DNA of 27,629 bases from Thermoguttaceae bacterium. GTDB taxonomy: Bacteria; Planctomycetota; Planctomycetia; Pirellulales; Thermoguttaceae. Below are positions 2 through 26,121 of the stretch, piece after piece (within the stretch, counting starts at the first letter, position 1; every line of letters starts with the position of its first letter). The notes below the pieces were generated by a model. It saw only the letters and a program-made list of their open reading frames with translations, had not been told where the DNA came from and did no database searches. The stretch is from assembly GCA_017447745.1 (NCBI GenBank), contig JAFSMW010000106.1, positions 1 through 27,629 on the forward strand. Reading direction: 5' to 3'. A program made the translations under genes and the position numbers.

Positions 2-1621
2 GTTGCGGAAGAAATCGCCAACGCCTGGACGAATTTTGACCTCTGCCCCAAGCCGGAAGTCGCGGGACCCGGGTTTCTCAATATTCGCATTAACAACGCC
101 TGGCTGGAAAAGAGCGTTCAAGCGCAGCTGACTGACGAACGCCTGAGCGTCCCTGCCGTTGAAAAGCCCCGGACAATCGTTATCGACTATTCCGCGCCGA
201 ACGTCGCCAAGCCGATGCACGTCGGGCATATTCGCTCCACGTCCATCGGAGACGCGCTGTACAAGATTCTGAAATTCCTCGGACACAACGTTATCAGCGA
301 CAACCACCTGGGCGACTGGGGAACGCAGTTCGGCATGATTATCTGGGGGTATCGCCGATTCCTCAACCCGGAAGCGTATCAAGCCAATCCGGTGGCGGAA
401 CTGACCCGAATATATCGGCTGGTTCGTCAGCTTGTAGACGAAAAGAAAACGGTTAAAGAGGCAGTAGGCAGTAGGCAAGAGGCAGTAGATTCGCCTGACG
501 GCGATCAGCTGGTCGGCGACGCCGTTTTGATGGAGACGTCCAAACTGCATCACGGCGACGAAGAAAACCTCGCTCTGTGGAAACAGATCATGCAGTCCTG
601 TTACAAGGAAATCGACAAGGTCTACAGCCGGCTTAAAGTTCGATTCGACTACACGCTGGGGGAAAGCTCGTATCAGCCGCAGCTGGAACCGCTGGTTGAA
701 AGCATGATTGCCAGCGGGCTGGCGCAGGTCAGCGAAGGCGCCGTTGTCGTGTTTAACCCGGAAATTTCCGAAGCCCCGTTTTTAATCCGCAAGCGCGACG
801 GCGCGTTTATCTACGGCACAACTGACCTCGCGACGCTGGAATATCGCAAGGCGCATTTTCATCCGGACGCCGTGTTGTACGTTGTCGATTCCCGTCAGGC
901 GTTACATTTCCAGCAGCTTTTCCGCACGTGGCGGCGCATGGATCCCGCTAACGAAAACGTCGAACTCAAACACGTCTCGTTCGGCACCGTTATGGGCGAC
1001 GACGGCAAACCGTTCAAAACCCGTTCCGGAGACACGGTCGGGCTGGAAAGCCTTCTGGACGAAGCGGAATCCGCCGCATGGAAAGTCGTCGAGCAGTCGC
1101 AGGCGTGTCAGTCCATGACGGAAGAACAGCGGCGCGACGTCGCCCGAAAAGTCGGAATCGGCGCGTTGAAGTACGCAGACCTGAGCCAAAACCGCGATTC
1201 GGACTACGTCTTTTCCTACGAAAAAATGCTTGCCATGAACGGCAACACAGCAACGTACATGCAGTATGCCTACGCCCGCGTCAGAAGCATTTTCGACAAA
1301 GGCGGAATCGACGTCGAAGCGTTCCGAAAATCCAATCCGGCTATCGTTTTGACTCAGCCGGCAGAACGCGCTCTGGTTATCGAACTGTCACGGTTTGAAG
1401 AAGCGCTGCTATCTGCCGTTTCCGACTACCGACCCAATCAGCTGACGTCGTACCTGTTTGAACTGGCGGCGCGGTACTCAACGTTCTTTGAACGCTGTCC
1501 CGTTCTCAAAGCGGAATCGGAAGAAGCCAAAACAACCCGACTGGCTCTGTGCGACCTGACCGCTCGAACAATCCAAAAGGGCTTGGAACTGCTGGGAATT
1601 GAAACGGTAGAAAGAATGTGA
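2..1621 (+). CDS. argS: Arginine--tRNA ligase (ArgRS), 5'-partial (gene starts before window)
   Basis: Reading frame is open from the window edge. Translation from nt 2 gives ...IVIDYSAPNVAKPMHVGHIRSTSIGDA (class I HIGH motif region) and GDWGTQFGM. Length and C-terminal anticodon-binding-like region fit ArgRS. Track ORF 215..1621 is the same frame from an internal Met. Confidence 0.9.
   Translation, partial: VAEEIANAWTNFDLCPKPEVAGPGFLNIRINNAWLEKSVQAQLTDERLSVPAVEKPRTIVIDYSAPNVAKPMHVGHIRSTSIGDALYKILKFLGHNVISDNHLGDWGTQFGMIIWGYRRFLNPEAYQANPVAELTRIYRLVRQLVDEKKTVKEAVGSRQEAVDSPDGDQLVGDAVLMETSKLHHGDEENLALWKQIMQSCYKEIDKVYSRLKVRFDYTLGESSYQPQLEPLVESMIASGLAQVSEGAVVVFNPEISEAPFLIRKRDGAFIYGTTDLATLEYRKAHFHPDAVLYVVDSRQALHFQQLFRTWRRMDPANENVELKHVSFGTVMGDDGKPFKTRSGDTVGLESLLDEAESAAWKVVEQSQACQSMTEEQRRDVARKVGIGALKYADLSQNRDSDYVFSYEKMLAMNGNTATYMQYAYARVRSIFDKGGIDVEAFRKSNPAIVLTQPAERALVIELSRFEEALLSAVSDYRPNQLTSYLFELAARYSTFFERCPVLKAESEEAKTTRLALCDLTARTIQKGLELLGIETVERM
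458..505 (+). repeat. In-frame copy of the heptamer-array + hairpin element inside argS (gaggcagtaggcagtaggcaagaggcagtag + attcgcctgacggcgat)
   Basis: Matches the intergenic copies at 1620-1647, 15976-16006 and 23960-23980 (reverse complement). Translated as EAVGSRQEAVDSPDGD. The only unit that would put TAG in the argS frame is the GAG variant. Confidence 0.7.
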
Positions 1622-1680
1622 GTTAGGCAATAGGCAAGAGGCAGTAGTTTAAAAGTCCCTACTGCCTACTGCCTACTGCC
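1620..1680. terminator. Heptamer-array hairpin element between argS and ligA (arms gagttaggcaataggcaagaggcagtag / ctactgcctactgcctactgcc)
   Basis: Imperfect ~22-bp inverted repeat with an 11-nt loop. The left arm starts inside the argS TGA (TGAGTTAGG). TAG/TAA stops appear in all three frames within 34 nt of the stop. Confidence 0.5.
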
Positions 1681-1689
1681 TTAAATGCC

Positions 1690-4710: not shown

Positions 4711-6684
4711 TCAGAAATCAACGTCGTCATCCTGAATATCGACGTTGTCTCCAATTTCAAAGTTATCATCGTCATTATTGCCTACGTTGTCTTTATTGTC
4801 AGCGGCGTCTTCTTCAACGTCAGCATCGTCTTCAACGTCAGCATCGTCTTCAACGTCAGCGTCGTCTTCAACGTCAGCATCGTCTTCAACGTCAGCGTCG
4901 TCTTCAACGTCAGCATCGTCTTCAACGTCAGCATCGTCTTCAACGTCAGCGTCGTCTTCAACGTCAGCGTCGTCTTCAACGTCAGCGTCGTCTTCAACGT
5001 CTGCGTCGTCTTCAACGTCTGCGTCGTCTTCAGCGTCTGCGTCGTCTTCAGCGTCAGCATCGTCTTCAACGTCAGCATCGTCTTCAACGTCAGCGTCGTC
5101 AATGTCAACGTCCTCGTCAAAATCGTCGTCGAGATCTTCTTCGTTAACAATCAGTTCACCAAATTTCTCTGTAAGCGTTTCAACGAGGTAATCGTTTCGG
5201 AATTCAGTGGAGAACACTTTTCCGTCATTACCGACCAAGACCATACACGGCAGAGCAATAATTCCGTAGTATTCGCTGATGCTAACGCTGTCAACACGAG
5301 CATCCTTTTCCCACATATTAATCCAGGGGAATTTGTGTCTCTTAACGAACTTTGCAACCTGTTTTTTGTTTTGGTCCAAAGCAATGCAAACGATCTCAAA
5401 CCCTTTGGCTTTGTAGGCTGGATAGGCGCGTCTTAAGTATTTGAATTCTTCCATACTGGGCGGAATGGACGGCGACCAGAAGTAGACCAAAACGGTCTTG
5501 TCTTTCAGGTCAGCCATGTTGAACTCTTTGCCGTCAATTGTCTTTCCAGTTAGCGGAAGTTCTTTTCCTTTGAGAGTAAGGCGTTTGGCAGAACCGCGCA
5601 TTGTTTTAACAATTTCCTGAACCTTGGCGTCCTGAATGTTTTCAAAGGCGACAGCGTATTTTTCATAACGTGCGGCAGCGGCGGCGGTATCAAAAACTTC
5701 TTCGGTAAAAGCGGTCTGGAAAGCGATTGCAACCACCTTCAGATTGGCTTTCTCGCCGTAATCGGCAATCATGTCGTCAACAGCTTTAGCGGTTTTATCA
5801 AACTTGGCTTTGTCATTTTGAGCAACCGATTCTGACAGCGCGCTGGCAAGCTTGCCCATGAAGATGTCTTCAACCATATCAGACAAACCGGCTTCTTTGA
5901 TTTCTGCAATAACCGCTTCAAAATCTGCAGAATTGTCAACGCCTTTGAGCTGTCCGAGTCCTTTGATGCAAATCAGCTTAATCAGGTACAGACGCTGAAG
6001 CTTTTCTTTGTTTTCCGCAGGCGTCTTTTGGATGGTTTGACCTGTCTGCTCGATGATTTTTTCAACATCAGAATAATCGTTCGTCTTTTTGGCGTCCTGG
6101 AACGTCAAAGTAATCAATCCCATGACAATATCGTCTGCGAGTTGGGACTGTCCGATTTTTTCGAGCTGACCCGGCATGGAGTACAGTTGAACTTTCGCGT
6201 CTTTATCACCCGCCTTAATAAGAATTTGCAAACTCTTAATTTTTACGGCAACCGCACGCTGAATCTGTTCGACAGTTGCGTCTTTATGTTCAATGACCTT
6301 ATCAGCCGCCGCAACTTGAGCTTTACACAGCTTGGTGTAATGAGCAATCATTTCTTCCCGCGACTGGTCTGCAGGACGTTTGATGAGCATGAGTTTTTCG
6401 ATAAAAGCCAGATATTCTGCCGGCGTTCCGTTTTTTGGGACGGGGTATGCCTCGGAATCAACGCTCTCCTCTTCAAGAGCCTCTTCGACGTTCGCTTCCG
6501 CTTCTGTTTCTTCAGCGGGTGTTGTATCTTCAGCGGGAATCTGAGATTCGGCATCCTCAGTCTGTTCTGCGTTTTCAACAGCAGGCGCAGCGTCGGTCGG
6601 AACGGGAGCGTCGTCTGCAAAGCAGGACGCCATAAACAGGGTCATAGCCAAAAAGGCGGCTATATTCATCAATGTACAACGCAT
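4711..6684 (-). CDS. Secreted/lipoprotein-like protein with a CXXC-less thioredoxin-fold (TlpA/redoxin-like) domain and a poly-acidic (DDADVE)n tail
   Basis: Signal peptide with a lipobox-like MASC. An acidic N-terminal linker is followed by a ~320-aa helical region. The redoxin-like segment reads KTVLVYFWSPSIPPSMEEF...ALPCMVLVGNDGKVF; the WCxxC position is replaced by WSPSIPPS. About 16 DDADVE repeats lead to a terminal DDDVDF. SD AAGGAG lies 8 nt upstream of the ATG. Confidence 0.7.
   Translation of the reverse strand: MRCTLMNIAAFLAMTLFMASCFADDAPVPTDAAPAVENAEQTEDAESQIPAEDTTPAEETEAEANVEEALEEESVDSEAYPVPKNGTPAEYLAFIEKLMLIKRPADQSREEMIAHYTKLCKAQVAAADKVIEHKDATVEQIQRAVAVKIKSLQILIKAGDKDAKVQLYSMPGQLEKIGQSQLADDIVMGLITLTFQDAKKTNDYSDVEKIIEQTGQTIQKTPAENKEKLQRLYLIKLICIKGLGQLKGVDNSADFEAVIAEIKEAGLSDMVEDIFMGKLASALSESVAQNDKAKFDKTAKAVDDMIADYGEKANLKVVAIAFQTAFTEEVFDTAAAAARYEKYAVAFENIQDAKVQEIVKTMRGSAKRLTLKGKELPLTGKTIDGKEFNMADLKDKTVLVYFWSPSIPPSMEEFKYLRRAYPAYKAKGFEIVCIALDQNKKQVAKFVKRHKFPWINMWEKDARVDSVSISEYYGIIALPCMVLVGNDGKVFSTEFRNDYLVETLTEKFGELIVNEEDLDDDFDEDVDIDDADVEDDADVEDDADAEDDADAEDDADVEDDADVEDDADVEDDADVEDDADVEDDADVEDDADVEDDADVEDDADVEDDADVEDDADVEDDADVEEDAADNKDNVGNNDDDNFEIGDNVDIQDDDVDF
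4810..5105 (-). repeat. 18-bp coding minisatellite (gtcagcatcgtcttcaac and variants, ~16 copies) encoding DDADVE repeats
   Basis: Direct reading. Units differ mostly at synonymous positions (gca/gcg, gat/gac), with occasional V->A changes. It also generates the spurious repeat ORFs 4666..5436, 4674..5147, 4745..5191 and 4782..5150. Confidence 0.9.
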
Positions 6685-6797
6685 GGTTCTCTCCTTGTGG
6701 CGATGTGGTGAATAGTTGCGAGTAGCGAGTTGCGAGAGAAATTGTGTAAGGCGTATGCTTTCTCTTGTTTCGTGCTGCTCAATAGCTTCTTTATTAT

Positions 6798-6826
6798 ATA
6801 TTACCAGAAAACACCTAATTTGACAA
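6798..6826 (-). promoter_or_regulatory. Sigma70-like promoter candidate for the 4711..6684 gene (minus-strand -35 TTGTCA, 17-nt spacer, -10 TAATAT)
   Basis: Plus-strand sequence reads atatta(6798-6803)-17 nt-tgacaa(6821-6826). It lies ~115 nt upstream of the ATG at 6684, in an AT-rich patch. Confidence 0.35.
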
Positions 6827-6890
6827 GAGGAATTTTGGCTATTGTCCAGTTTGGGCGTTGCGAAAGATTAGATTTTTTGAGGCGCTTTGA

Positions 6891-6948
6891 CTCATCACTC
6901 CTCACTCCTAATTCCTAACTCAAACCACTCCCTATACTCTATTCCCCT
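6891..6948 (-). repeat. Heptamer array (CCTCACT/CCTAATT/CCTAACT ... TATTCCC on plus strand) overlapping the umuC-like stop codon
   Basis: The minus-sense strand reads TAGGGGAATAGAGTATAGGGAGTGG...GAGTTAGGAATTAGGAGTGAGG. The umuC-like TAG stop is the first TAG of the array. Confidence 0.7.
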
Positions 6949-8206: not shown

Positions 8207-8235
8207 GGGGGATGTATGGGAACAGAAGTGGATTT

Positions 8236-8404
8236 GAGTTAGGAATGAGGAGGGAGGAGTGAGGAGTTGGTATAGCGCTTTGCGCCGACAGGGTCGGTTC
8301 CCGAATGGACGTGGGATGCGCCGAAATAGGCTTTTTCGGAGGCATAACCTTGTCCTCTTGCCCGCGCGGCTTCGCGCCCTCACTCCTAATTCCTAACTCC
8401 TAAC
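8236..8404. repeat. MITE-like unit: inverted heptamer arrays (gagttaggaatgaggagggaggagtgaggag ... cctcactcctaattcctaactcctaact) flanking a ~95-bp core with a gcgcg-gctt-cgcgc hairpin
   Basis: The arms at 8236-8269 and 8377-8404 are reverse complements of the same heptamer family. It sits between the metzincin stop (8423) and the umuC-like start (8206). Confidence 0.5.
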
Positions 8405-8422
8405 TGTTTAAACTACAGTCTA

Positions 8423-9826
8423 TTAATCCCTAATCTTTATATGAATCCCCTCCGTCTTTCCGTACCGGTCAATGACGTGCATTTCCAAATCGCCTTTGAA
8501 TTCCTCGCAGCCGTCTTTAAGTTCCTCTACAGAGAATCGCATCTGCTTCGGCAGCGGCTGACCGGGTTGAGGCGCAACGTAAAGTTGTCTATCTTCGCCG
8601 GACGCGACGCCGAAAAAGGCGATGCCGTTTTCCGCTTCGAGTTTAACGGACTGATTGTCGTCGATGAGTTCAATTTTGACGTCTCCTTCATCGTTTACCG
8701 GCGGTTCGTCCTGGAAGAACCGGTTGACGTTCAGCGCCGCGGCGGAAATGGGCGACCAGTTGGCGGCTTCGTCGTCAATATTTTCCAGCCAATCGTCGTT
8801 TTCTTTGCTGGGGGCTTCCCGCATGACAAAGAAACGGTTGAGCTGGTCGATTCCTCGCGTCATGATGTCGCGCGGTTCGTTGGAATGGGGCAGATCGAAG
8901 GTGTGTCCCAACTCGTGCAGAGCCGCGCCGATTGTCGTTGCCGCTGCCGCCCAGTAGACGGAACGGTAGGCGGAATCGTCATGGAAATGTTTGCTGTCAA
9001 CGGGGGTGGAGTCCGTAAACGCTTTGACGACGCCGTCGAGCGAGTCCGACCACGTATACATGCAGCTGGAACCGAACATCGCCTGACAGCCGCCACCCAA
9101 AGCAGTGTGACATTTCGTCTCTTTGGTTTTGGGATCAAAGCGCGTATAGGAGGGAATGACGAGGTTGCGTCCGGAATCTTCCGGGAACTGGGGCGTAACT
9201 TCGTCATAAACCATGTCGTACCAGTCTTCATCAGAAACGGAACCGTATTCTTTCGCCGTCTTCTTTCCTTTGAAGACGTGAACAATGACGTCGCCGTTTT
9301 CGTCCAGTTCCAGATTGAACGTCTTTCTGCCCAGACCAGCGTCGTTCATGGATTCCGCCGTAAAACACTGCATCAATTTGAGAGCGGTGTCGAGTTTTCC
9401 TTTGAAATTCTGTGGGTCGTTTTTATACGGCGTTTGAAACGTCGTGTCGCCGGTGGAATCCGTCATGTAAATCATACGGACAACCAGCGGATTGGAGTTC
9501 TTTTTGTAGTTCAGCTTCAGAGTCGTTTTATATTCTCCGCTTGTCAGTTCGAGTTCATTTTCTCCCGGAACGAGTTCAGCAAGAACCTTGAACTTGCCTT
9601 TCCAGGCGTCGCCATGAATCTTTCGAGACGCTTTCTGAGACGATAAATTTGTACAGACAATTTCCGTTGCGGATTCGTCGTACAGACGCCCTCGCAGCAA
9701 CGCGACCGGGTAATCAATTTCCGTCCCGTCGGTAAAATTAACGACTTGAATCGCCTCGTCGGCAAACAGCGCCGACGTCAGTGAAATAAGTAAAGCAAAA
9801 GCAATAGTTGTAATGTAACGAGTCAT
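8423..9826 (-). CDS. Secreted metzincin-type zinc metalloprotease (matrixin-like HEXXHXXGXXHS motif, here HELGHTFDLPHS, plus Met-turn DIMTRG), paralog A
   Basis: Signal peptide MTRYITTIAFALLISLTSALFA. Zinc-binding motif and Met-turn are present. Closely similar along its whole length to the 9933..11330 gene immediately upstream. Confidence 0.7.
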   Translation of the reverse strand: MTRYITTIAFALLISLTSALFADEAIQVVNFTDGTEIDYPVALLRGRLYDESATEIVCTNLSSQKASRKIHGDAWKGKFKVLAELVPGENELELTSGEYKTTLKLNYKKNSNPLVVRMIYMTDSTGDTTFQTPYKNDPQNFKGKLDTALKLMQCFTAESMNDAGLGRKTFNLELDENGDVIVHVFKGKKTAKEYGSVSDEDWYDMVYDEVTPQFPEDSGRNLVIPSYTRFDPKTKETKCHTALGGGCQAMFGSSCMYTWSDSLDGVVKAFTDSTPVDSKHFHDDSAYRSVYWAAAATTIGAALHELGHTFDLPHSNEPRDIMTRGIDQLNRFFVMREAPSKENDDWLENIDDEAANWSPISAAALNVNRFFQDEPPVNDEGDVKIELIDDNQSVKLEAENGIAFFGVASGEDRQLYVAPQPGQPLPKQMRFSVEELKDGCEEFKGDLEMHVIDRYGKTEGIHIKIRD

Positions 9827-9864
9827 AATATACAGGGATTAAATTGGAATGTCTGAGTCGTTTT

Positions 9865-9944
9865 GAGTTAGGAATTAGGAGTGAGGAGCGATATTCGCCG
9901 AAGGCGAACCACTACTGCCTACTGCCTCTTGCCTATTGCCTAAC
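9865..9944. repeat. Heptamer-array + hairpin element between the two metzincin paralogs (gagttaggaattaggagtgaggag / ttcgccgaaggcgaa / ctactgcctactgcctcttgcctattgcctaac)
   Basis: The central hairpin is a perfect palindrome. The right arm supplies the last three codons and the TAG of paralog B (..VRQ*). Confidence 0.7.
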
Positions 9945-11330
9945 ATGAACGCTTCTCGTCTTTCCGTAACGGTCAATAGCGTGAAGCTCCAAACCGTCTT
10001 TGAAATTTTTGACTTTGTCTTTGAGTTCCTGAACGGAGAATCGCATCTGTTTAGGCAGTTCCTGACCCGGTTGAGGGGCAACGAAAAACTGGCGATGTCC
10101 GTCAGACATGGCGCCGAAATAAGCGATGCCGTTTTCCGCCTCGACCTCAACGGTTTCCCCGTCGTCAACGATCTGCAGCGTAACTCTCCCTTGATTTTCA
10201 GCCGGCGGTTCGTCCTGGAAGAACGGGCAGACGTTCAGCGCCGCGGCGGAAATGAGCGACCAGTTGGCGGCTCGGTCGTCCAGGTTTTCTAACCAATCTC
10301 GATTGAATCTGCTGGGAGCTTCCCGCATGACGAAAAAGCGGTTAAGCTGGTCGATTCCGCGGGTCATGATGTCGCGCGGCTGGTTGGAATGGGGCAGACC
10401 GAAGGTGTGTCCCAACTCGTGCAAAGCCGCGCCAATTGTCGTTGACGCCGCCGCCCAGTAAACGGAACGGAAAGCAGTGTCGTCATGGAAACGCTCTTTA
10501 TCAACGGGCGTGGAATCCGTAAACGCCTTGACAACGCCGTCGAGCGAATCCGGCCACGTGTACATGCAGCCTGACCCGAACAGAGCCAGACTTCCGCCGC
10601 CTAACGCTGTGTGACATTTCGTCCTTTTGGTTTCTGGATCAAAGCGAGTATAGGCGGGAATGACGAGGTTTTTTCCATTGTACCACGGGAAGTCATTTGA
10701 TATTTCCTGATAGACCTTATCGTACCATTCATGATCGGAAAGAGCGGCGTATTCCTCCATCGTCTTCTGTCCTTTGAAGACGTGAACGATTACGTCGCCG
10801 TTGTCGTCCAGTTCCAGATTGAACGTCTTTCGACCCAGCCCAGAGTCGTTCATGGTTTCTGCTGTAAAGCACTGCATCAGCTTTAACGCGGTGTCGAGCT
10901 TGCCCTTGAAATTCTGCGGGTCGTTTTCATACGGCGTTTGGAACGTTGTGTCGCCGGTCGAATCCGTCATGTAAATCATACGGACGACCAACGGGTTGGA
11001 GTTCTTTTTGTAGTTCAGTTTCAGAGTCGTTTTATGATCCCCACTTGTCAGTTCGAGTTCGTTTTCCCCCGGAACGAGTTCCGCAAGAACCTTGAACTGA
11101 CCTTTCCAGGCGTCGCCGTGAATCTGTCGAGACGCTTTCTGAGAAGACAAATTCGTACAGACGATTTCCGTTGCGGATTCGTCAGAAAGACGCCCTCGCA
11201 GCAACGCGACCGGGTAGTCAATTTCCGTTCCGTTGGTAAAGTTAACGACTTGAATCGCCTCGTCGGCATACAGAGCCGACGTCAGCGAGATAAACAATGC
11301 AAAAACGATAGTTGTGATGGTGCGTGTCAT
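9933..11330 (-). CDS. Secreted metzincin-type zinc metalloprotease (HELGHTFGLPHS, Met-turn), paralog B
   Basis: Signal peptide MTRTITTIVFALFISLTSALYA. Canonical HEXXHXXGXXH is present. The preferred start is the second Met (matches paralog A); the track start at 11351 adds MINTLPT. There are 17 bp between it and the upstream oxidoreductase stop. Confidence 0.7.
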   Translation of the reverse strand: MTRTITTIVFALFISLTSALYADEAIQVVNFTNGTEIDYPVALLRGRLSDESATEIVCTNLSSQKASRQIHGDAWKGQFKVLAELVPGENELELTSGDHKTTLKLNYKKNSNPLVVRMIYMTDSTGDTTFQTPYENDPQNFKGKLDTALKLMQCFTAETMNDSGLGRKTFNLELDDNGDVIVHVFKGQKTMEEYAALSDHEWYDKVYQEISNDFPWYNGKNLVIPAYTRFDPETKRTKCHTALGGGSLALFGSGCMYTWPDSLDGVVKAFTDSTPVDKERFHDDTAFRSVYWAAASTTIGAALHELGHTFGLPHSNQPRDIMTRGIDQLNRFFVMREAPSRFNRDWLENLDDRAANWSLISAAALNVCPFFQDEPPAENQGRVTLQIVDDGETVEVEAENGIAYFGAMSDGHRQFFVAPQPGQELPKQMRFSVQELKDKVKNFKDGLELHAIDRYGKTRSVHVRQ

Positions 11331-11347
11331 GGTAGGGAGCGTATTAA

Positions 11348-12829
11348 TCAATCAATTGTCGGAACGATATACGGTGCGCGCTGCGGTCGCGTCAGCAGGG
11401 CGTTGGCTTCCGGCATGCCGTCAATCTGGAATGTTTCGTTGTTGATGGAAATCTTCTTGCCCAGCGTCCAGGCAACGTCTTTGTTGAGGTCAAGCTCCGG
11501 CAGACAGAACTGGACGTTTTCGAGCGTTTCGTCAATCGTCTGCTGCATAATCGGATTGTTCCCGACAGCGTCGCGGCAGGCGTTCAGAGACGCTGTTGAC
11601 CCGGAACGATAAGAGACGTTGCCCAAGTGACAAATTCCGGCGCTGAAATGCCCTTCGGTAATCGGCGCGTTGAGCTTGTCCGGCGTATTGTCGCGAACGC
11701 AGTTGATAAAGTTCTGGAAGATGTCGCCGGGGTTGAGCGCTTCGCAGTCAATATTGATTTGTTCCGTCTTTCCGTTGTTGGAATGGAACGTCGAACCTTG
11801 AATGTACCCATCTTCTGTTACAAACCAGCCAACTTCTCGCGGATTCCATTTGTCGTTGTTGCGATTTCTCAGATTGCAGGACTGGAAAATGAGCGGGATC
11901 CCGTTAAAGTCGCAAATTCCCAGCATGACAGTTGGTGTCTCAGCGGCGTCCTTGTAATTATGCTCTTTGTCGATAACCGTTCGCGTTCCGAAAAAGACGA
12001 CGTTTTGCGGGAATTTGAGATCGGGGAAAAGCTGCGTCAGACCGATTCGGCAGACGTCAAAGTAATGGACGCCGTTGTTGCCGATTTCTCCGTTTCCGAA
12101 ATTCCAGTACCAGTGCCAGTTGTATGGGACGTATCGTTCGCTAAAGGGAACCATCGCCGCCGGACCGACCCACAAGTCCCAATCGATGTTTTGCGGGGCA
12201 GGGGCGTCTGGAAGGAACGGCATGGGATTGCGCGGTCGATTGGCAAACGCCTTAACGGCAATCGGTTTCCCGAACATTCCCTTTGCCCAGGCGACTGCGC
12301 CTTTTTTTGTTCCGAAGTCGCACCGTCGCTGCGTTCCGTGCTGAATGCAGACGTTGTACTTTCTCATCGCCGCCGCCAACTGACAGCCCTCAAAGAGATT
12401 TTGGGAACAGGGCTTTTCGACGTAGACGTGCTTTCCCGCCTGCGCCGCCCAAATTCCCAAAAGCGAATGCCAATGGTTGCAGGACGCAATCGAAACAAAA
12501 TCGACGTCCTTGTCGTCAAAAAGCTGACGGGCGTCCTGAACGGCTTTGCAGTCGTTTCCCTTTTTATCTTTGATCCATTTAGCAGCGCTGTTGGCGCGAT
12601 TCAAATCAGCGTCCGCCGTTCCGACGATTTCCACGCCGTTGATGCCGGAAAACGCCTGAACGTGATGATTTCCTCGACTGCCAACGCCCAACACGGCGCC
12701 GCGAAGGCGGTCGTTCGCTCCAAACGCCTTGGACGAAATAAACAAAGGACAAACCGCCGCGCCGGAAATGACGACGCTGGCTTTAACGAAATCTCGTCTT
12801 GAAATCTTTCTTTTGAAAGTCATGATCAT
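11348..12829 (-). CDS. Gfo/Idh/MocA-family NAD(P)-dependent oxidoreductase with twin-arginine (Tat) signal
   Basis: RRDFVKASVVISGAA Tat motif. Rossmann-type VLGVGSRGNHHVQAF...VEIVG and EKPCSQ family motif. 493 aa. Confidence 0.8.
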   Translation of the reverse strand: MIMTFKRKISRRDFVKASVVISGAAVCPLFISSKAFGANDRLRGAVLGVGSRGNHHVQAFSGINGVEIVGTADADLNRANSAAKWIKDKKGNDCKAVQDARQLFDDKDVDFVSIASCNHWHSLLGIWAAQAGKHVYVEKPCSQNLFEGCQLAAAMRKYNVCIQHGTQRRCDFGTKKGAVAWAKGMFGKPIAVKAFANRPRNPMPFLPDAPAPQNIDWDLWVGPAAMVPFSERYVPYNWHWYWNFGNGEIGNNGVHYFDVCRIGLTQLFPDLKFPQNVVFFGTRTVIDKEHNYKDAAETPTVMLGICDFNGIPLIFQSCNLRNRNNDKWNPREVGWFVTEDGYIQGSTFHSNNGKTEQINIDCEALNPGDIFQNFINCVRDNTPDKLNAPITEGHFSAGICHLGNVSYRSGSTASLNACRDAVGNNPIMQQTIDETLENVQFCLPELDLNKDVAWTLGKKISINNETFQIDGMPEANALLTRPQRAPYIVPTID

Positions 12830-12929
12830 TTTTACAGGTTAAAAGGAAGGGAAAACGTTCGATGAAAACAGTCCATGCGACGCTCGGATTATAAATTATC
12901 ATTTATTATATCAAAACCGATTTTAAAAT

Positions 12930-13119
12930 GGAATAGGGGGGAGGAGATATAAGCTATTAGCTAATAGCTAGAAGCTAGCAACTCAAAAAATACTCCCTCC
13001 GTGGGTTAAAACCCACGGCTACAAATATTGAACTGCTACGCAGTTCTTGAGGAACGCTATCGCGTCTGTTTAAATAACTACGCCCTCTTCCCTACTGCCT
13101 ACAGCCTCTTTTTCCCTCA
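12930..13119. repeat. Divergent-promoter region packed with element parts: ggaataggggggaggag, an AGCTATT/AGCTAAT/AGCTAGA/AGCTAGC heptamer array, hairpin ccgtgggtt-aa-aacccacgg, hairpin gaactgc-tac-gcagttc, and ccctactgcctacagcc
   Basis: Direct reading between the oxidoreductase start (12829) and the M16 peptidase start (13247). Confidence 0.5.
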
Positions 13120-13246
13120 ATTTTAGATAAAAAAGAACAAATAGGGGGTTTTTGCCGTATCATTAAATATTGATTTCGTGTATAATATTTATATAGTTCA
13201 AAATATTATGTTGTTTCAATTTACCCCCCCAAAAAGAGAAAAACTT

Positions 13247-15970: not shown

Positions 15971-16150
15971 GGGTTTAGGCAGTAGGCAAGAGGCAGTAGG
16001 CAGTAGTAGTTCGCCTTCGGCGAATTTTAAACTACGCCATATTACCTATTGTCTAAACTAATGTTTTCCGTTGGTTTGATGAATAAATAAGGCAGTATGC
16101 AGTAGAAAAGATTTCCCTATTGCCTACTGCCTACTGCCTAATGCCTCAAA
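15971..16150. terminator. Bidirectional element between convergent M16 peptidase and GH5 genes: TAGGCAG-type array (15976-16006), hairpin ttcgccttcggcgaa (16010-16024), second hairpin ggcagtatgcagtag...cctattgcctactgcctactgcc (16091-16140)
   Basis: Plus-sense array directly follows the M16 TAA; the minus-sense array follows the GH5 TGA. Perfect GC hairpin in the centre. Confidence 0.6.
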
Positions 16151-16170
16151 CTACTGTCTACTCCCTTTCT

Positions 16171-17733: not shown

Positions 17734-17765
17734 GATATAATAGTGTGTCTATGACTAATTTAATA

Positions 17766-17796
17766 CTACTGCCTATTGCCTACTGCCTATTGTCTA
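17766..17796 (-). repeat. Heptamer array (ctactgcctattgcctactgcctattgtcta) filling the GH5/beta-helix intergenic gap and supplying the ...NRQ-TAG end of the beta-helix gene
   Basis: Direct reading. The stop codon at 17780-17782 lies inside the array. Confidence 0.7.
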
Positions 17797-20257: not shown

Positions 20258-20544
20258 GGCAGGGAAGGGAAGCTGTTGAGATTTGCAAGAGGATGAAAGG
20301 CGGTAATGACGGTTGGTCATTCCAGAGTTTTGGTTTGCCTTCGGCAAACTGCGTAATTCCGCTCCCGTTGGTCGCTCCATTACCGCCTTCCATTCTCATT
20401 ATAAACCAACCCAAAACAAAAATCAAGAATTTTCCTGTATTTTTCTCTTATCCCGCTTTCTTTTTTCTGAATTAATCGTATAAATATAAATAGAGTAATT
20501 GGTTTCTTTGCAAACGTTTGACAATATCACCCAATTTAAGAGTC

Positions 20545-21619: not shown

Positions 21620-23260
21620 ATGACGCATTTAGCAACATTATCGCAGATAACAGAATCTTCGATGATCTATCCGGCAATTTTTATCGGATTGATTATTCTG
21701 CTTCTTGCCGGGCTGTTTGTTCTTTTTCTGAAATGTTATAAACGCTGCCCCAGTAACCGGATTCTTGTCATTTTCGGTATGACGGAAAAAGGCAAATCGG
21801 CAGTCTGCATTGCCGGCGGCGCGAGATTCGTCAAGCCGTTTATTCAGGATTACGCTTGGCTGTCTCTCGAACCGATGCAGATTGAAGTTCCTCTGCGCGG
21901 CGCGCTGTCTTTGGAAAACATCCGCGTCAACGTCCCCAGCGTGTTTACGGTTGCTATCGGAACGTCAGACGACCTGATGCAAAATGCAGCAGTTCGACTT
22001 CTCGGCTTGTCTTTCGGGGAAATCAAAAAGCAGGCAGAGGACATCATTTTCGGTCAGATGCGTCAGGTAATCGCGTCCATGCCGATTGTTGACATCAACC
22101 GCGACCGTGACAAGTTTCTGGAAAACATTCAACATTCTCTGGAACCGGAATTGCGAAAAATCGGTTTGATTCTCATCAACGTCAACATTACAGATATTAC
22201 TGACGAATCTGGCTACATCGAAGCAATGGGGCAGAAAGCGGCGTCTGAAGCGATTCAGAAGGCGCGCGGCGACGTTGCGGAAAACGAAAAGATGGGCGCT
22301 GTCGCCGTTGCCAACGCAGAACGGGAAAAGGCGGTTCGCGTTTCGGAAGCCAACCGCGACATGAACATCGGAACCCGTGAAGCTGAACGAGATCAGCAGA
22401 TTCGTTTGGCAGATCTGGCAAAAGAGCAGTCCATTGGAGAACAACAGGCGGAATTCCAGAAAGAAGCCGAAATCAAAGAAGCAGAACGGGAAATGCGAAT
22501 TCGTCTGGCAGACGCCAACGCGAAGGCGATTGAGGGCGAAAACATCTCTCAAGCCGTCATTGCAGCGTCTAAAGCCGAGTTGATGATCAAACAGGCGGAA
22601 GCGTTTCAGGCAGGCGGTACGAAAAAGGCCGTTGCGGAAGCCGCTGTTAAAGAAGCGGAAAACTTGGCTTTGGCAAAGGCGGCGGAAGCGGAAGCGGTTC
22701 GCATTGAAGCAGAGCGTCGCGCCGAACTGGAAGCCCCGGCAAAAGCCGAAAAGGCGAAAATCATCGTCGAGGCGGAAGCCGAAGCCGAGAAACGACGCGT
22801 CGAGGCGACTGGTCGAGCGGCAGAAATCTATGCGGAACTGGAAGCACGAGCCCGCGGCGAATACGAAATCCTCGCTCGGAAAGGCGAAGGTCTTCAGAAG
22901 ATTATCGAGGCGTGCGGCGGCGCGGAAGCTGCGTTCCGACTCCTGCTTCTGGAACATTTCGACACACTGATCGAATCCTCCGCAAAAGCCATTTCCAACA
23001 TCAAGTTCGACAAAGTCGTCGTTTGGGATGGAACTGGACAAGGCGGTCAAACGGCAACGTCCAACTGGCTTACCGGCATGGCGAAAACGCTCCCGCCGAT
23101 GCTCGAAGTCATGAAAGAAGTCGCCGGCGTCGACATCCTGCCGTCTATCACCGGAGCCGAAAGCAAAGAACCCGCTCCGGCGGCAGAAGCCCCTGTCCCA
23201 ACGGAACCCCCTGCCCCGGCGGCAGAAAAACCTGTAACAAAAACCGCTGCGAAGAAATAG
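21620..23260 (+). CDS. floT: Flotillin-like SPFH/band-7 protein (FloT-like)
   Basis: N-terminal membrane hairpin followed by an SPFH domain and a long Ala/Glu-rich coiled-coil (EA repeats); 546 aa. The TAG stop is part of the downstream GGGAATA array. Confidence 0.8.
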   Translation: MTHLATLSQITESSMIYPAIFIGLIILLLAGLFVLFLKCYKRCPSNRILVIFGMTEKGKSAVCIAGGARFVKPFIQDYAWLSLEPMQIEVPLRGALSLENIRVNVPSVFTVAIGTSDDLMQNAAVRLLGLSFGEIKKQAEDIIFGQMRQVIASMPIVDINRDRDKFLENIQHSLEPELRKIGLILINVNITDITDESGYIEAMGQKAASEAIQKARGDVAENEKMGAVAVANAEREKAVRVSEANRDMNIGTREAERDQQIRLADLAKEQSIGEQQAEFQKEAEIKEAEREMRIRLADANAKAIEGENISQAVIAASKAELMIKQAEAFQAGGTKKAVAEAAVKEAENLALAKAAEAEAVRIEAERRAELEAPAKAEKAKIIVEAEAEAEKRRVEATGRAAEIYAELEARARGEYEILARKGEGLQKIIEACGGAEAAFRLLLLEHFDTLIESSAKAISNIKFDKVVVWDGTGQGGQTATSNWLTGMAKTLPPMLEVMKEVAGVDILPSITGAESKEPAPAAEAPVPTEPPAPAAEKPVTKTAAKK

Positions 23261-23316
23261 GGAATAGGAATGGGGAATAGGGAGTAGACGCTTGCGTCAA
23301 CTCCTCACTCCTAACT
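23257..23316. terminator. Bidirectional element between convergent flotillin and minimal-metallopeptidase genes (tagggaataggaatggggaatagggagtag / acgcttgcgt / ctcctcactcctaact)
   Basis: The plus-sense array contains the flotillin TAG. The minus-sense array begins 2 nt after the metallopeptidase TGA. Confidence 0.6.
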
Positions 23317-23318
23317 AT

Positions 23319-23774: not shown

Positions 23775-23781
23775 AGATGCA

Positions 23782-23980
23782 GGGAATAGGGAGTAGGGAA
23801 TGGGGAGTAGGGAATAGGGAATAGGGAATAGGGAGTGGCAAGTGGATTGGAAGGCGGTAATGGAGCGACCAACGGGAGCGGAATTACGCATTCGCCGTCA
23901 GGCGAACGGAGGCATTAGGCGATAGGCAATAGGAAAGAGTGTAAAATTTCTACTGCCTACTGCCTCTTGCCTACTGCCTC
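23782..23980. repeat. Large composite element between the radical-SAM gene and the metallopeptidase gene: (GGGAATA/GGGAGTA)x8, hairpin ttcgccgtcaggcgaa (23891-23906), TAGGCGA/TAGGCAA/TAGGAAA array, then ctactgcctactgcctcttgcctactgcc
   Basis: Direct reading. The last arm encodes the final EAVGKRQ and the TAG of the radical-SAM protein on the minus strand. Confidence 0.8.
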
Positions 23981-25706: not shown

Positions 25707-25933
25707 CCCACGCCTTTAGGCGTGGGTTCCAAAACGACATAAATAGTAATATAACGCACAAATTCCCTGTCCCTTCCCCGCTCCGAATGGAGCGGGGAAG
25801 GGACAGGGAGGGAAGCGTTTTGGGGAGGAGCATTTATTTAGTCCCCCAGATAAATCTGGGGGCTACGTTTTTTGAATTGTTTTTATTACCCACGTCTAAA
25901 GACGTGGGGATAAGAACAGATAAATCTGGAGAC
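25707..25933 (+). ncRNA. Cluster of GC hairpins in a 600-bp non-coding region. Hairpin cccacgcc-ttta-ggcgtggg (25707-25726). Perfect 20-bp stem ccctgtcccttccccgctcc-gaat-ggagcggggaagggacaggg (25765-25808). Hairpin cccccaga-taaa-tctggggg followed by cTACGttttttg (25843-25873). Hairpin cccacgtc-taaa-gacgtggg (25889-25908). Degenerate repeat cagataaatctggagactacg.
   Basis: Direct reading. The third hairpin plus T-run looks like a plus-strand intrinsic terminator, but there is no plus-strand CDS for 2.5 kb upstream. Hairpins 1/4 and 3/5 are duplicated units. Confidence 0.35.
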
Positions 25934-26057: not shown

Positions 26058-26118
26058 AGGGAATAGAGCTTCGCATTCGGCGAATTTAAATACTATTCCC
26101 TACTCCCTATTCCCTACT
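26058..26118. repeat. Heptamer-array + hairpin element immediately upstream of the 26122 start codon (tatagggaatagag / cttcgcattcggcgaa / tattccctactccctattccctacta)
   Basis: Direct reading. Same family as the elements at gene 3' ends. Confidence 0.7.
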
Positions 26119-26121
26119 ATC

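Follow-up and report, generated by a model that had tools for sequence, protein, structure and literature searches.

How does DNA of an intergenic repeat family that is laden with stop codons come to be read as protein inside an essential gene? The question is raised by a 27.6-kb contig of an uncultured Thermoguttaceae bacterium (Planctomycetota), which originates from ruminant foregut metagenomes and to which we refer, at its full length, as the window. Its first gene, at 2..1621 on the plus strand, has lost its 5' end at the window edge and encodes the C-terminal 539 residues of arginyl-tRNA synthetase (ArgRS, arginine--tRNA ligase; gene argS), as judged from its translation and from Pfam matches to tRNA-synt_1d (8.9e-97), DALR_1 (2.9e-34) and Arg_tRNA_synt_N. 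Within argS, a 51-nt element (455-505) is read in frame as 16-17 extra amino acids. By sequence similarity, this segment derives from a family of heptamer repeats found mostly between genes. We hold with moderate confidence that it is a translated passenger, copied from an intergenic element by microhomology-guided replacement in a tolerant loop of the enzyme.

The segment at 458-505 reads GAGGCAG TAGGCAG TAGGCAA GAGGCAG TAG followed by ATTCGCCTGACGGCGAT, and is translated in argS as EAVGSRQEAVDSPDGD. Its first part, at 458..488 on the plus strand, is a forward, TAG-bearing heptamer array of 4.4 units that encodes EAVGSRQEAV, delineated by Tandem Repeats Finder (period 7, 4.3 copies at 459-488), by exact matches to intergenic copies and by frame analysis. 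The second part, ATTCGCCTGACGGCGAT at 489..505 on the same strand, encodes DSPDGD and is a small GC hairpin of the TTCGCC-N3-4-GGCGAA motif family, as indicated by a motif census, by RNA folding and by its match to 23891-23906, of which it is the reverse complement with 1 mismatch. The initial annotation described this part as a half hairpin; it is instead complete (TCGCC-TGAC-GGCGA), with a stem at 491-495/500-504 and the loop TGAC. A GTAG head precedes the palindrome at 485-505 (GTAG-A-TTCGCC-TGAC-GGCGAT), a layout with a similar counterpart at 16003-16024. In a typical intergenic spacer, the family forms a composite that comprises a forward array, a spacer often carrying the hairpin TTCGCC-N3-4-GGCGAA, and a reverse array. 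The argS copy has one array arm only, the left half of such a composite.

Membership in the repeat family is supported by several lines of evidence. Allowing at most one mismatch, the unit GGCAGTAGGCA has 20 matches in the window against 0.1 expected, spread over about 10 spacers and mostly intergenic. Positions 465-488 are identical to 15976-15999 over 24 nt, and besides this 24-mer there are three exact matches of 19-23 nt, among them 466-488 to the reverse complement of 23957-23979 and 456-474 to the reverse complement of 9912-9930. When the loop was aligned locally to the rest of the window, the best alignment (15976-16023) took in array and hairpin together and scored 50, compared with a maximum of 32 in 100 shuffles. 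The original suggestion of an element copy in the same style as the intergenic ones is thus borne out. The 17-mer TAGGCAAGAGGCAGTAG is restricted to loci of this Thermoguttaceae species group (134 loci fetched), and the heptamer units of a relative whose ArgRS is 80% identical differ from those of this genome. A scan of a genome collection with the pattern GGCARKAGGCARKAGGCA found loosely similar arrays in many phyla among the matches listed; this pattern is too loose to define the range of the family, because many of the matches are GAGGCAG-only arrays. No Rfam family matched anywhere in the window at the gathering threshold.

Being translated sets the argS copy apart from its relatives. Among 157 arrays, it is the only TAG-bearing forward array spanned by an open reading frame (ORF) of more than about 130 codons; at one other locus (L100), an array with a single TAG is contained in an open stretch of 132 codons, which probably does not represent a gene. 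A search of a 5.8-billion-protein collection with (EAVGSRQ)5+EAVDSPDGD returned only mini-ORFs of 35-67 aa, single 16-aa copies being undetectable in this way. Neither ortholog alignments nor this search revealed the same peptide in an unrelated lineage.

Translation is possible owing to unit variants. Of the three forward frames over the segment, only that of argS is free of stops, as first noted; the +1 frame meets TAG at 465 and 486, and the +2 frame meets TAG at 472 and TGA at 496, while all three reverse-strand frames are open. Two units, at 458 and 479, carry GAG in place of TAG, where a single one had been reported. They are spaced 21 nt apart and therefore both fall in the argS frame, which is open because these in-frame units read GAG rather than TAG. 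In the common variant of the family, TAGGCAAGAGGCAGTAG, the GAG unit corresponds to unit 479; unit 458 (AAAGAGGCAG) recurs in some alleles of the alternative form B described below. One frame likewise stays open after the stop of the M16 peptidase gene, up to 16030. The initial annotation further held that only the tolerated frame is used; this is true of argS but is not a property of the element, since arrays in stop-containing frames simply end genes, and the apparent rule therefore reflects survivorship. Four window genes end on an array TAG (9933-9935, 17780-17782, 23258-23260 and 23957-23959); they encode a Metallopep paralog, a beta-helix protein, a Band 7/SPFH protein and a radical-SAM/SPASM protein, the last of which ends ..YREAVGKRQ*, with its final seven codons coming from the array.

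The site in the protein is one of marked length variation. The loop between the anchors ELxRxY(R/Q) and ET(A/S)KLH spans 18-115 aa in 126 planctomycete ArgRS proteins; we take it to be the Ins-1 insertion of the catalytic domain, going by the yeast and E. coli ArgRS structures. Orthologs lack the peptide: E. coli ArgRS (4OBY, 5YYM) aligns with a 20-residue gap exactly at the segment, the 80% relative (P0002) has only ETVDGAPVGEQV, and 75% relatives have ETVEQSDGSTISVGDAV. The loop of the species complex is 10-15 residues longer than in outgroups. In an AlphaFold2 model of the full-length 597-aa protein (mean predicted local distance difference test score, pLDDT, 87.5), the element peptide, residues 211-226, lies between helices 188-204 and 229-241, and pLDDT falls to 68 for residues 211-220, compared with about 90 in both flanks. 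The peptide is thus predicted to sit at the tip of a tolerant, hypervariable surface loop, in line with the placement proposed at the outset. In the same loop, P0050 and about 50 other Thermoguttaceae ArgRS proteins have about 75-95 inserted residues, with A, E and K abundant (alignment columns 215-290), so that the anchors stand 92-115 aa apart.

The element-bearing allele is real and under constraint. At least five assemblies, independent of one another and made from different samples with different assemblers, contain it with unique flanks on both sides; it is therefore no assembly artefact. Several ENA, NCBI and Logan assemblies hold an identical ligA together with a near-identical argS, one being GCA_017557195.1 (isolate RGIG7588, water buffalo omasum). 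For one pair of lineages with the element, dN (nonsynonymous divergence) is 0.0023 and dS (synonymous divergence) is 0.20, indicating strong purifying selection on argS; by the resulting dN/dS of about 0.01, argS with the element is judged to be a functional gene.

Within the 90% ArgRS cluster, two forms of the loop occur in proteins that are at least 96% identical and in argS DNA that is about 95% identical. Allele A (597 aa) reads KTVKEA-VGSRQEAVDSPDGD-(Q/L)LVGDAV, with the peptide core ..KEAVGSRQEAVDSPDGD.., and allele B (598 aa) reads KTV(EQ/KE)A-EQE(F/L)SG(AA/TS/SA)VEGED(A/G)S-QLVGDAV. The loop DNA measures 51 nt in A and 54 nt in B, and the two share only AGGCAG (or AAAGAGGCAG) at the left and GGCGA at the right; the 80% relative has neither loop. 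The notion of a simple in-frame insertion does not survive this comparison. Unrelated sequence of nearly equal length at the same place implies replacement in an already expanded loop, or a replacement in the other direction. We considered whether allele B could be a decayed copy of the element and dropped the idea as unsupported: the B and B' loops align to the window repeats no better than shuffled sequence does. A hairpin-like TTCGGTCGAAGGCGAA in B' was likewise set aside, its two mismatches being a level that recurs in ordinary coding sequence of the window.

The most informative point about the segment is its invariance across diverged lineages. The A lineages compared number five and come from different samples; they are L132, L135, L137, L138 and the window type, L004. 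Outside the loop they differ pairwise at 72-84 of 1731 positions, and argS as a whole has 168 segregating sites, of which none falls in the 51-nt element. The longest invariant run of the entire gene, 57 nt in a segregating-site scan (449..505 on the plus strand; gene coordinates 622-678), consists of the element and the six bases upstream of it; segregating sites begin again six bases before the element and one base past it. Windows of 51 nt that lack a segregating site are rare (16 of 1744), and seven of these 16 lie on the element stretch. In four B lineages, by contrast, the loop is the most variable 54-nt window of argS, with 18 segregating sites against a mean of 4.0, a variation that by sequence comparison appears about equal to that of neutral sites. 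In a neighbor-joining tree built without the loop and with two outgroups, the B lineages form a clade (94.5% bootstrap), and the A lineages are star-like and possibly paraphyletic.

The number of units in the argS copy is constant as well in the five lineages, unlike that of the argS-ligA spacer composite, in which each arm counts three units in the window but four in the other lineages examined (window 1624-1681, L132 11797-11868, L001 about 2027-2095, L007 11800-11871). Both spacer arms changed together, so that hairpin pairing was kept. Constancy within argS is expected, because the reading frame would not survive the gain or loss of one unit (7 nt) or two (14 nt).

Taking these observations together, we infer that the sequence in argS was most likely copied from an intergenic element, by template switching or ectopic gene conversion, with the edge identities (GGCGA at the right edge and either AGGCAG or AAAGAGGCAG at the left) as possible guides. 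What was copied would be the left half of a lineage-specific composite, namely the forward array plus the central small GC hairpin, and it would have replaced a loop segment of near-equal length at a site that was already expanded rather than empty. The intergenic donor would be expected to read ...GGCAAGAGGCAGTAGATTCGCCTGACGGCGAA.... For the enzyme, the product would be a passenger peptide in a tolerant loop. Templated copying fits best because it accounts at once for the exact 24-mer, the attached hairpin and the absent second arm, as well as for the lack of a target duplication and the alternative allele of equal length.

A passenger in a neutral loop should drift like the B loop, and the invariance of allele A therefore calls for an additional explanation. 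The copy may be a patch of recent origin that homologous recombination has carried from lineage to lineage; a non-homologous patch would be a natural end point of exchange tracts, which would explain why normal diversity resumes at its borders. Intergenic copies may, alternatively, overwrite the loop repeatedly by ectopic conversion. Selection on the nucleotide sequence would be a third and less likely option.

Several considerations weigh against templated copying of a pure passenger. As the B lineages form a clade and those of A are star-like, perhaps paraphyletic, it could be A that is ancestral and B that replaced it. Were A old, its invariance would need maintenance or selection, beyond a pure passenger: about 18 segregating sites would be expected in the element from synonymous-site diversity, and none was found. 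The microhomologies, at 5-10 nt, could be coincidental, and the left one may itself be element-derived and have passed to some B alleles by recombination. The 23-mer across the array-hairpin junction has no match in JGI metagenome contigs, and no donor with precisely this junction was found; the nearest window copies differ from the argS copy by one unit or by the hairpin loop, and repeat copies of this species are known from only about 60 kb of its genome.

We speculate, tentatively and as one of the less probable outcomes, that the non-coding repeat family imposes its sequence on a neutral ArgRS loop, either by repeated ectopic conversion or by a spread that outpaces mutation. Overwriting or fast spread would explain why, within the gene, variability is lowest in the loop among A strains and highest there among B strains. 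If so, a repeat family would dictate a neutral loop of an essential gene across lineages with a dS of about 0.2.

Set against templated copying, it is doubtful that a mobile element similar to MITEs (miniature inverted-repeat transposable elements) or repetitive extragenic palindromes (REPs) transposed into a short ancestral loop, with B as an independent expansion or a later replacement. Such an origin, which the initial annotation had entertained alongside slippage, would suit a family with at least a dozen sites scattered over 27.6 kb, and an array by the gene upstream of argS is indeed present in some strains (L132) and absent in others (L004, L007 and L001). The GTAG directly before the palindrome recalls the arrangement in REP elements, and the 80% relative lacks the segment. 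The flanks of the argS copy (ACGGTTAAA / CAGCTGGTC; GGTTAAA / CAGCTG), however, show neither a target-site duplication nor terminal inverted repeats, and nothing but the left half of the composite is there. In sister alleles, moreover, the same place is taken up by sequence that is unrelated and almost equally long, and no transposase was seen in the DNA at hand; none of the window ORFs scanned matches a transposase family in Pfam.

Selection at the nucleotide level, with the segment acting as a cis element in argS (a binding site, or a regulatory or recombination signal), strikes us as unlikely. It would readily explain why none of the 51 nt segregates in five lineages and why the segment is the longest invariant run when the B loop is the most variable, the more so as the argS-ligA spacer copy does vary between the same lineages. 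The whole B clade, though, dispenses with the segment while constraint on argS is equally strong. Nor does structure speak for it: the RNA fold of the argS copy is unremarkable against shuffles (z = +0.36), the segment has no Rfam match, and the second array arm, the partner that gives intergenic copies their stable hairpin, is missing. An mRNA structure as the function of the segment was rejected on the grounds that it folds as the shuffles do.

Slippage in place from one GAGGCAG seed, adding three units with the frame kept, is very improbable. The same position carries AAAGAGGCAG in some B alleles, arrays in this genome vary in unit number between strains, and three units make 21 nt. Slippage copies faithfully, yet here the variant order (TAGGCAG TAGGCAA GAGGCAG TAG) repeats that of the intergenic 24-mer and is followed by the family's hairpin, which makes an origin in place unlikely; the A and B loops also differ throughout, rather than by an added block. 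Chance, codon bias or metagenome assembly artefact can practically be dismissed, since the shortness of the segment is all that speaks for them, the shuffle tests rule out chance, and the identical allele recurs in independent assemblies, samples and assemblers with unique flanks on both sides.

The arrays of the window have a period of 7 and several unit types (TAGGCAG, TAGGGAA, TTAGGAG/TGAGGAG, AGTTGCG and AGCTAAT), and occur in nearly every spacer: 1622-1689, 6685-6946, 8207-8422, 9827-9942, 12830-13177, 15971-16170, 17734-17796, 23256-23318, 23781-23980 and 26060-26120. From the order of forward and reverse arrays, as read from the coordinates, the TAG-bearing strand points inward from either flanking gene. 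The two arms of one composite may belong to different unit families. A complete composite occupies the argS-ligA spacer (1622..1689, plus strand; forward array, loop and reverse array, assigned from sequence and RNA fold) and folds at -32.5 kcal/mol (z = -5.75). The closest full-length relative of the argS copy, identified by local alignment and the 24-nt match, lies right after the M16 peptidase stop (15973..16024, plus strand) and consists of a forward array plus the TTCGCCTTCGGCGAA hairpin. Another intergenic copy, found by the motif census and exact matches on the minus strand at 23891..23979, combines the hairpin TTCGCCTGACGGCGAA with the array GAGGCAGTAGGCAAGAGGCAGTAGGCAGTAG, the one into which the radical-SAM gene extends by seven codons. 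At 9865..9942 on the plus strand, the motif census and a stop-codon check identified a composite of a TTAGGAG-type left array, the hairpin TTCGCCGAAGGCGAA and a reverse TAGGCAG-type array, which provides the stop codon of the minus-strand gene 9933..11351. This composite separates two tandem paralogs on the minus strand, 8423..9826 and 9933..11351, that encode putative metallopeptidases (PF12044).

Two further arrays, at 8236-8267 and 23781-23836, fall inside listed ORFs as N-terminal extensions of IMS/UmuC-like and Zincin_1 ORFs. Both precede the Pfam domains, and the former also precedes the start used in L004 (419 aa, compared with the 478-aa ORF); these arrays are most likely 5' leader DNA and not coding. 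A module made up of GGAAGGCGGTAATGGAGCGACC..GGAATTACGCA and, after it, a TTCGCC-type hairpin is repeated at 23848-23906, at 20334-20397 (reverse complement) and at L004 564-640. At 20380 it forms the start of a BNR_4 gene (MERPTGAELR..), and the same start at 23848 opens a 21-codon ORF only; the module may be a duplicated 5' leader or start module.

As for the surroundings of argS, ligA follows it in every lineage compared (L135, L137, L138, L004 and L007). The gene on its 5' side varies, being EamA in most lineages, gyrB in L135 and a CD225/SBP_bac_10 gene in L137, and synteny past ligA differs between the window and L132 or L007. Elsewhere in the window, the minus-strand gene 4711..6684 contains an 18-nt tandem repeat at 4805-5100 (16.4 copies, 95% identity); the product is thioredoxin-like, and the repeat gives its C-terminal part an acidic (DDADVE)n tract. 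At 25764-25809, inside a small unannotated ORF, lies an inverted repeat of 21 nt, perfect and with a loop of 4 nt (TCCCTGTCCCTTCCCCGCTCC GAAT GGAGCGGGGAAGGGACAGGGA), which is outside the heptamer families.

The locus offers a clean natural case of non-coding repeat DNA turned into protein sequence in an essential enzyme, with donor family, recipient loop and alternative allele all visible in one species complex. It indicates that even heptamer arrays full of stops are open to co-option where variants of the unit lie in phase, and the frozen A loop, set against the drifting B loop, provides a handle on how unexplained heptamer repeats move or are homogenized. In practical terms, gene callers and strain typing can be led astray by segments of this kind in metagenome-assembled genomes of Thermoguttaceae.

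Among known systems, the nearest in kind are the Rickettsia palindromic elements (RPEs), which Ogata et al. reportedly described in 2000 as inserted in frame in protein-coding genes. As in our case, a palindromic repeat lies both in intergenic DNA and in frame in conserved or essential genes, is absent from orthologs and adds a peptide, at a tolerated surface position in RPEs and at a predicted one in ArgRS. RPEs differ in being 100-150 bp long, in having no tandem heptamers and no stop-codon problem, and presumably in sharing no sequence with the argS element. The argS copy is, moreover, half of a composite (51 nt) and one of two alleles in a species complex. With organism, length and architecture all different, RPEs serve as an analogy only. 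They are mentioned in a review of MITEs (PMC10969869).

Heptanucleotide repeat arrays are known from cyanobacteria as short tandemly repeated repetitive (STRR) sequences and long simple sequence repeats (LSSRs). TAACTGA heptamer repeats occur in Beggiatoaceae, cyanobacteria and Bacteroidetes; their forward strand has a stop in all three frames, reverse-strand copies occasionally lie in ORFs, and one such copy sits in a variable loop of an RpoC-like protein (PMC4679880). Like these arrays, the Thermoguttaceae family has tandem 7-nt units that are mostly intergenic, forward copies that end ORFs, and variable unit numbers. The TAACTGA copies reported in ORFs have the stop-free, reverse orientation; in argS, by contrast, it is the stop-bearing orientation that is read, by way of in-phase GAG variants, and the arrays of this family combine with a small GC hairpin and a second, inverted array into composites.

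The family also bears a likeness to REPs and bacterial interspersed mosaic elements (BIMEs), in which a short GC-rich palindrome stands right after GTAG and many intergenic copies lie often just past stop codons. Heptamer arrays, however, are not part of REPs, and no RAYT gene was seen in the DNA examined; to our knowledge, REPs do not occur as translated in-frame copies in aminoacyl-tRNA synthetases. The argS copy likewise lacks the terminal inverted repeats and target-site duplication by which MITEs are recognized. Lineage-specific loop insertions are a general feature of aminoacyl-tRNA synthetases, and the ArgRS site conforms to this in taking from zero to about 95 extra residues; what differs is that the insert described here has a traceable source, a family of non-coding repeats. 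Heptamer arrays, and repeat copies that lie in frame within conserved genes, are thus each a known class, and what is new here is the translation of the stop-bearing orientation, the allelic dimorphism and the frozen copy.

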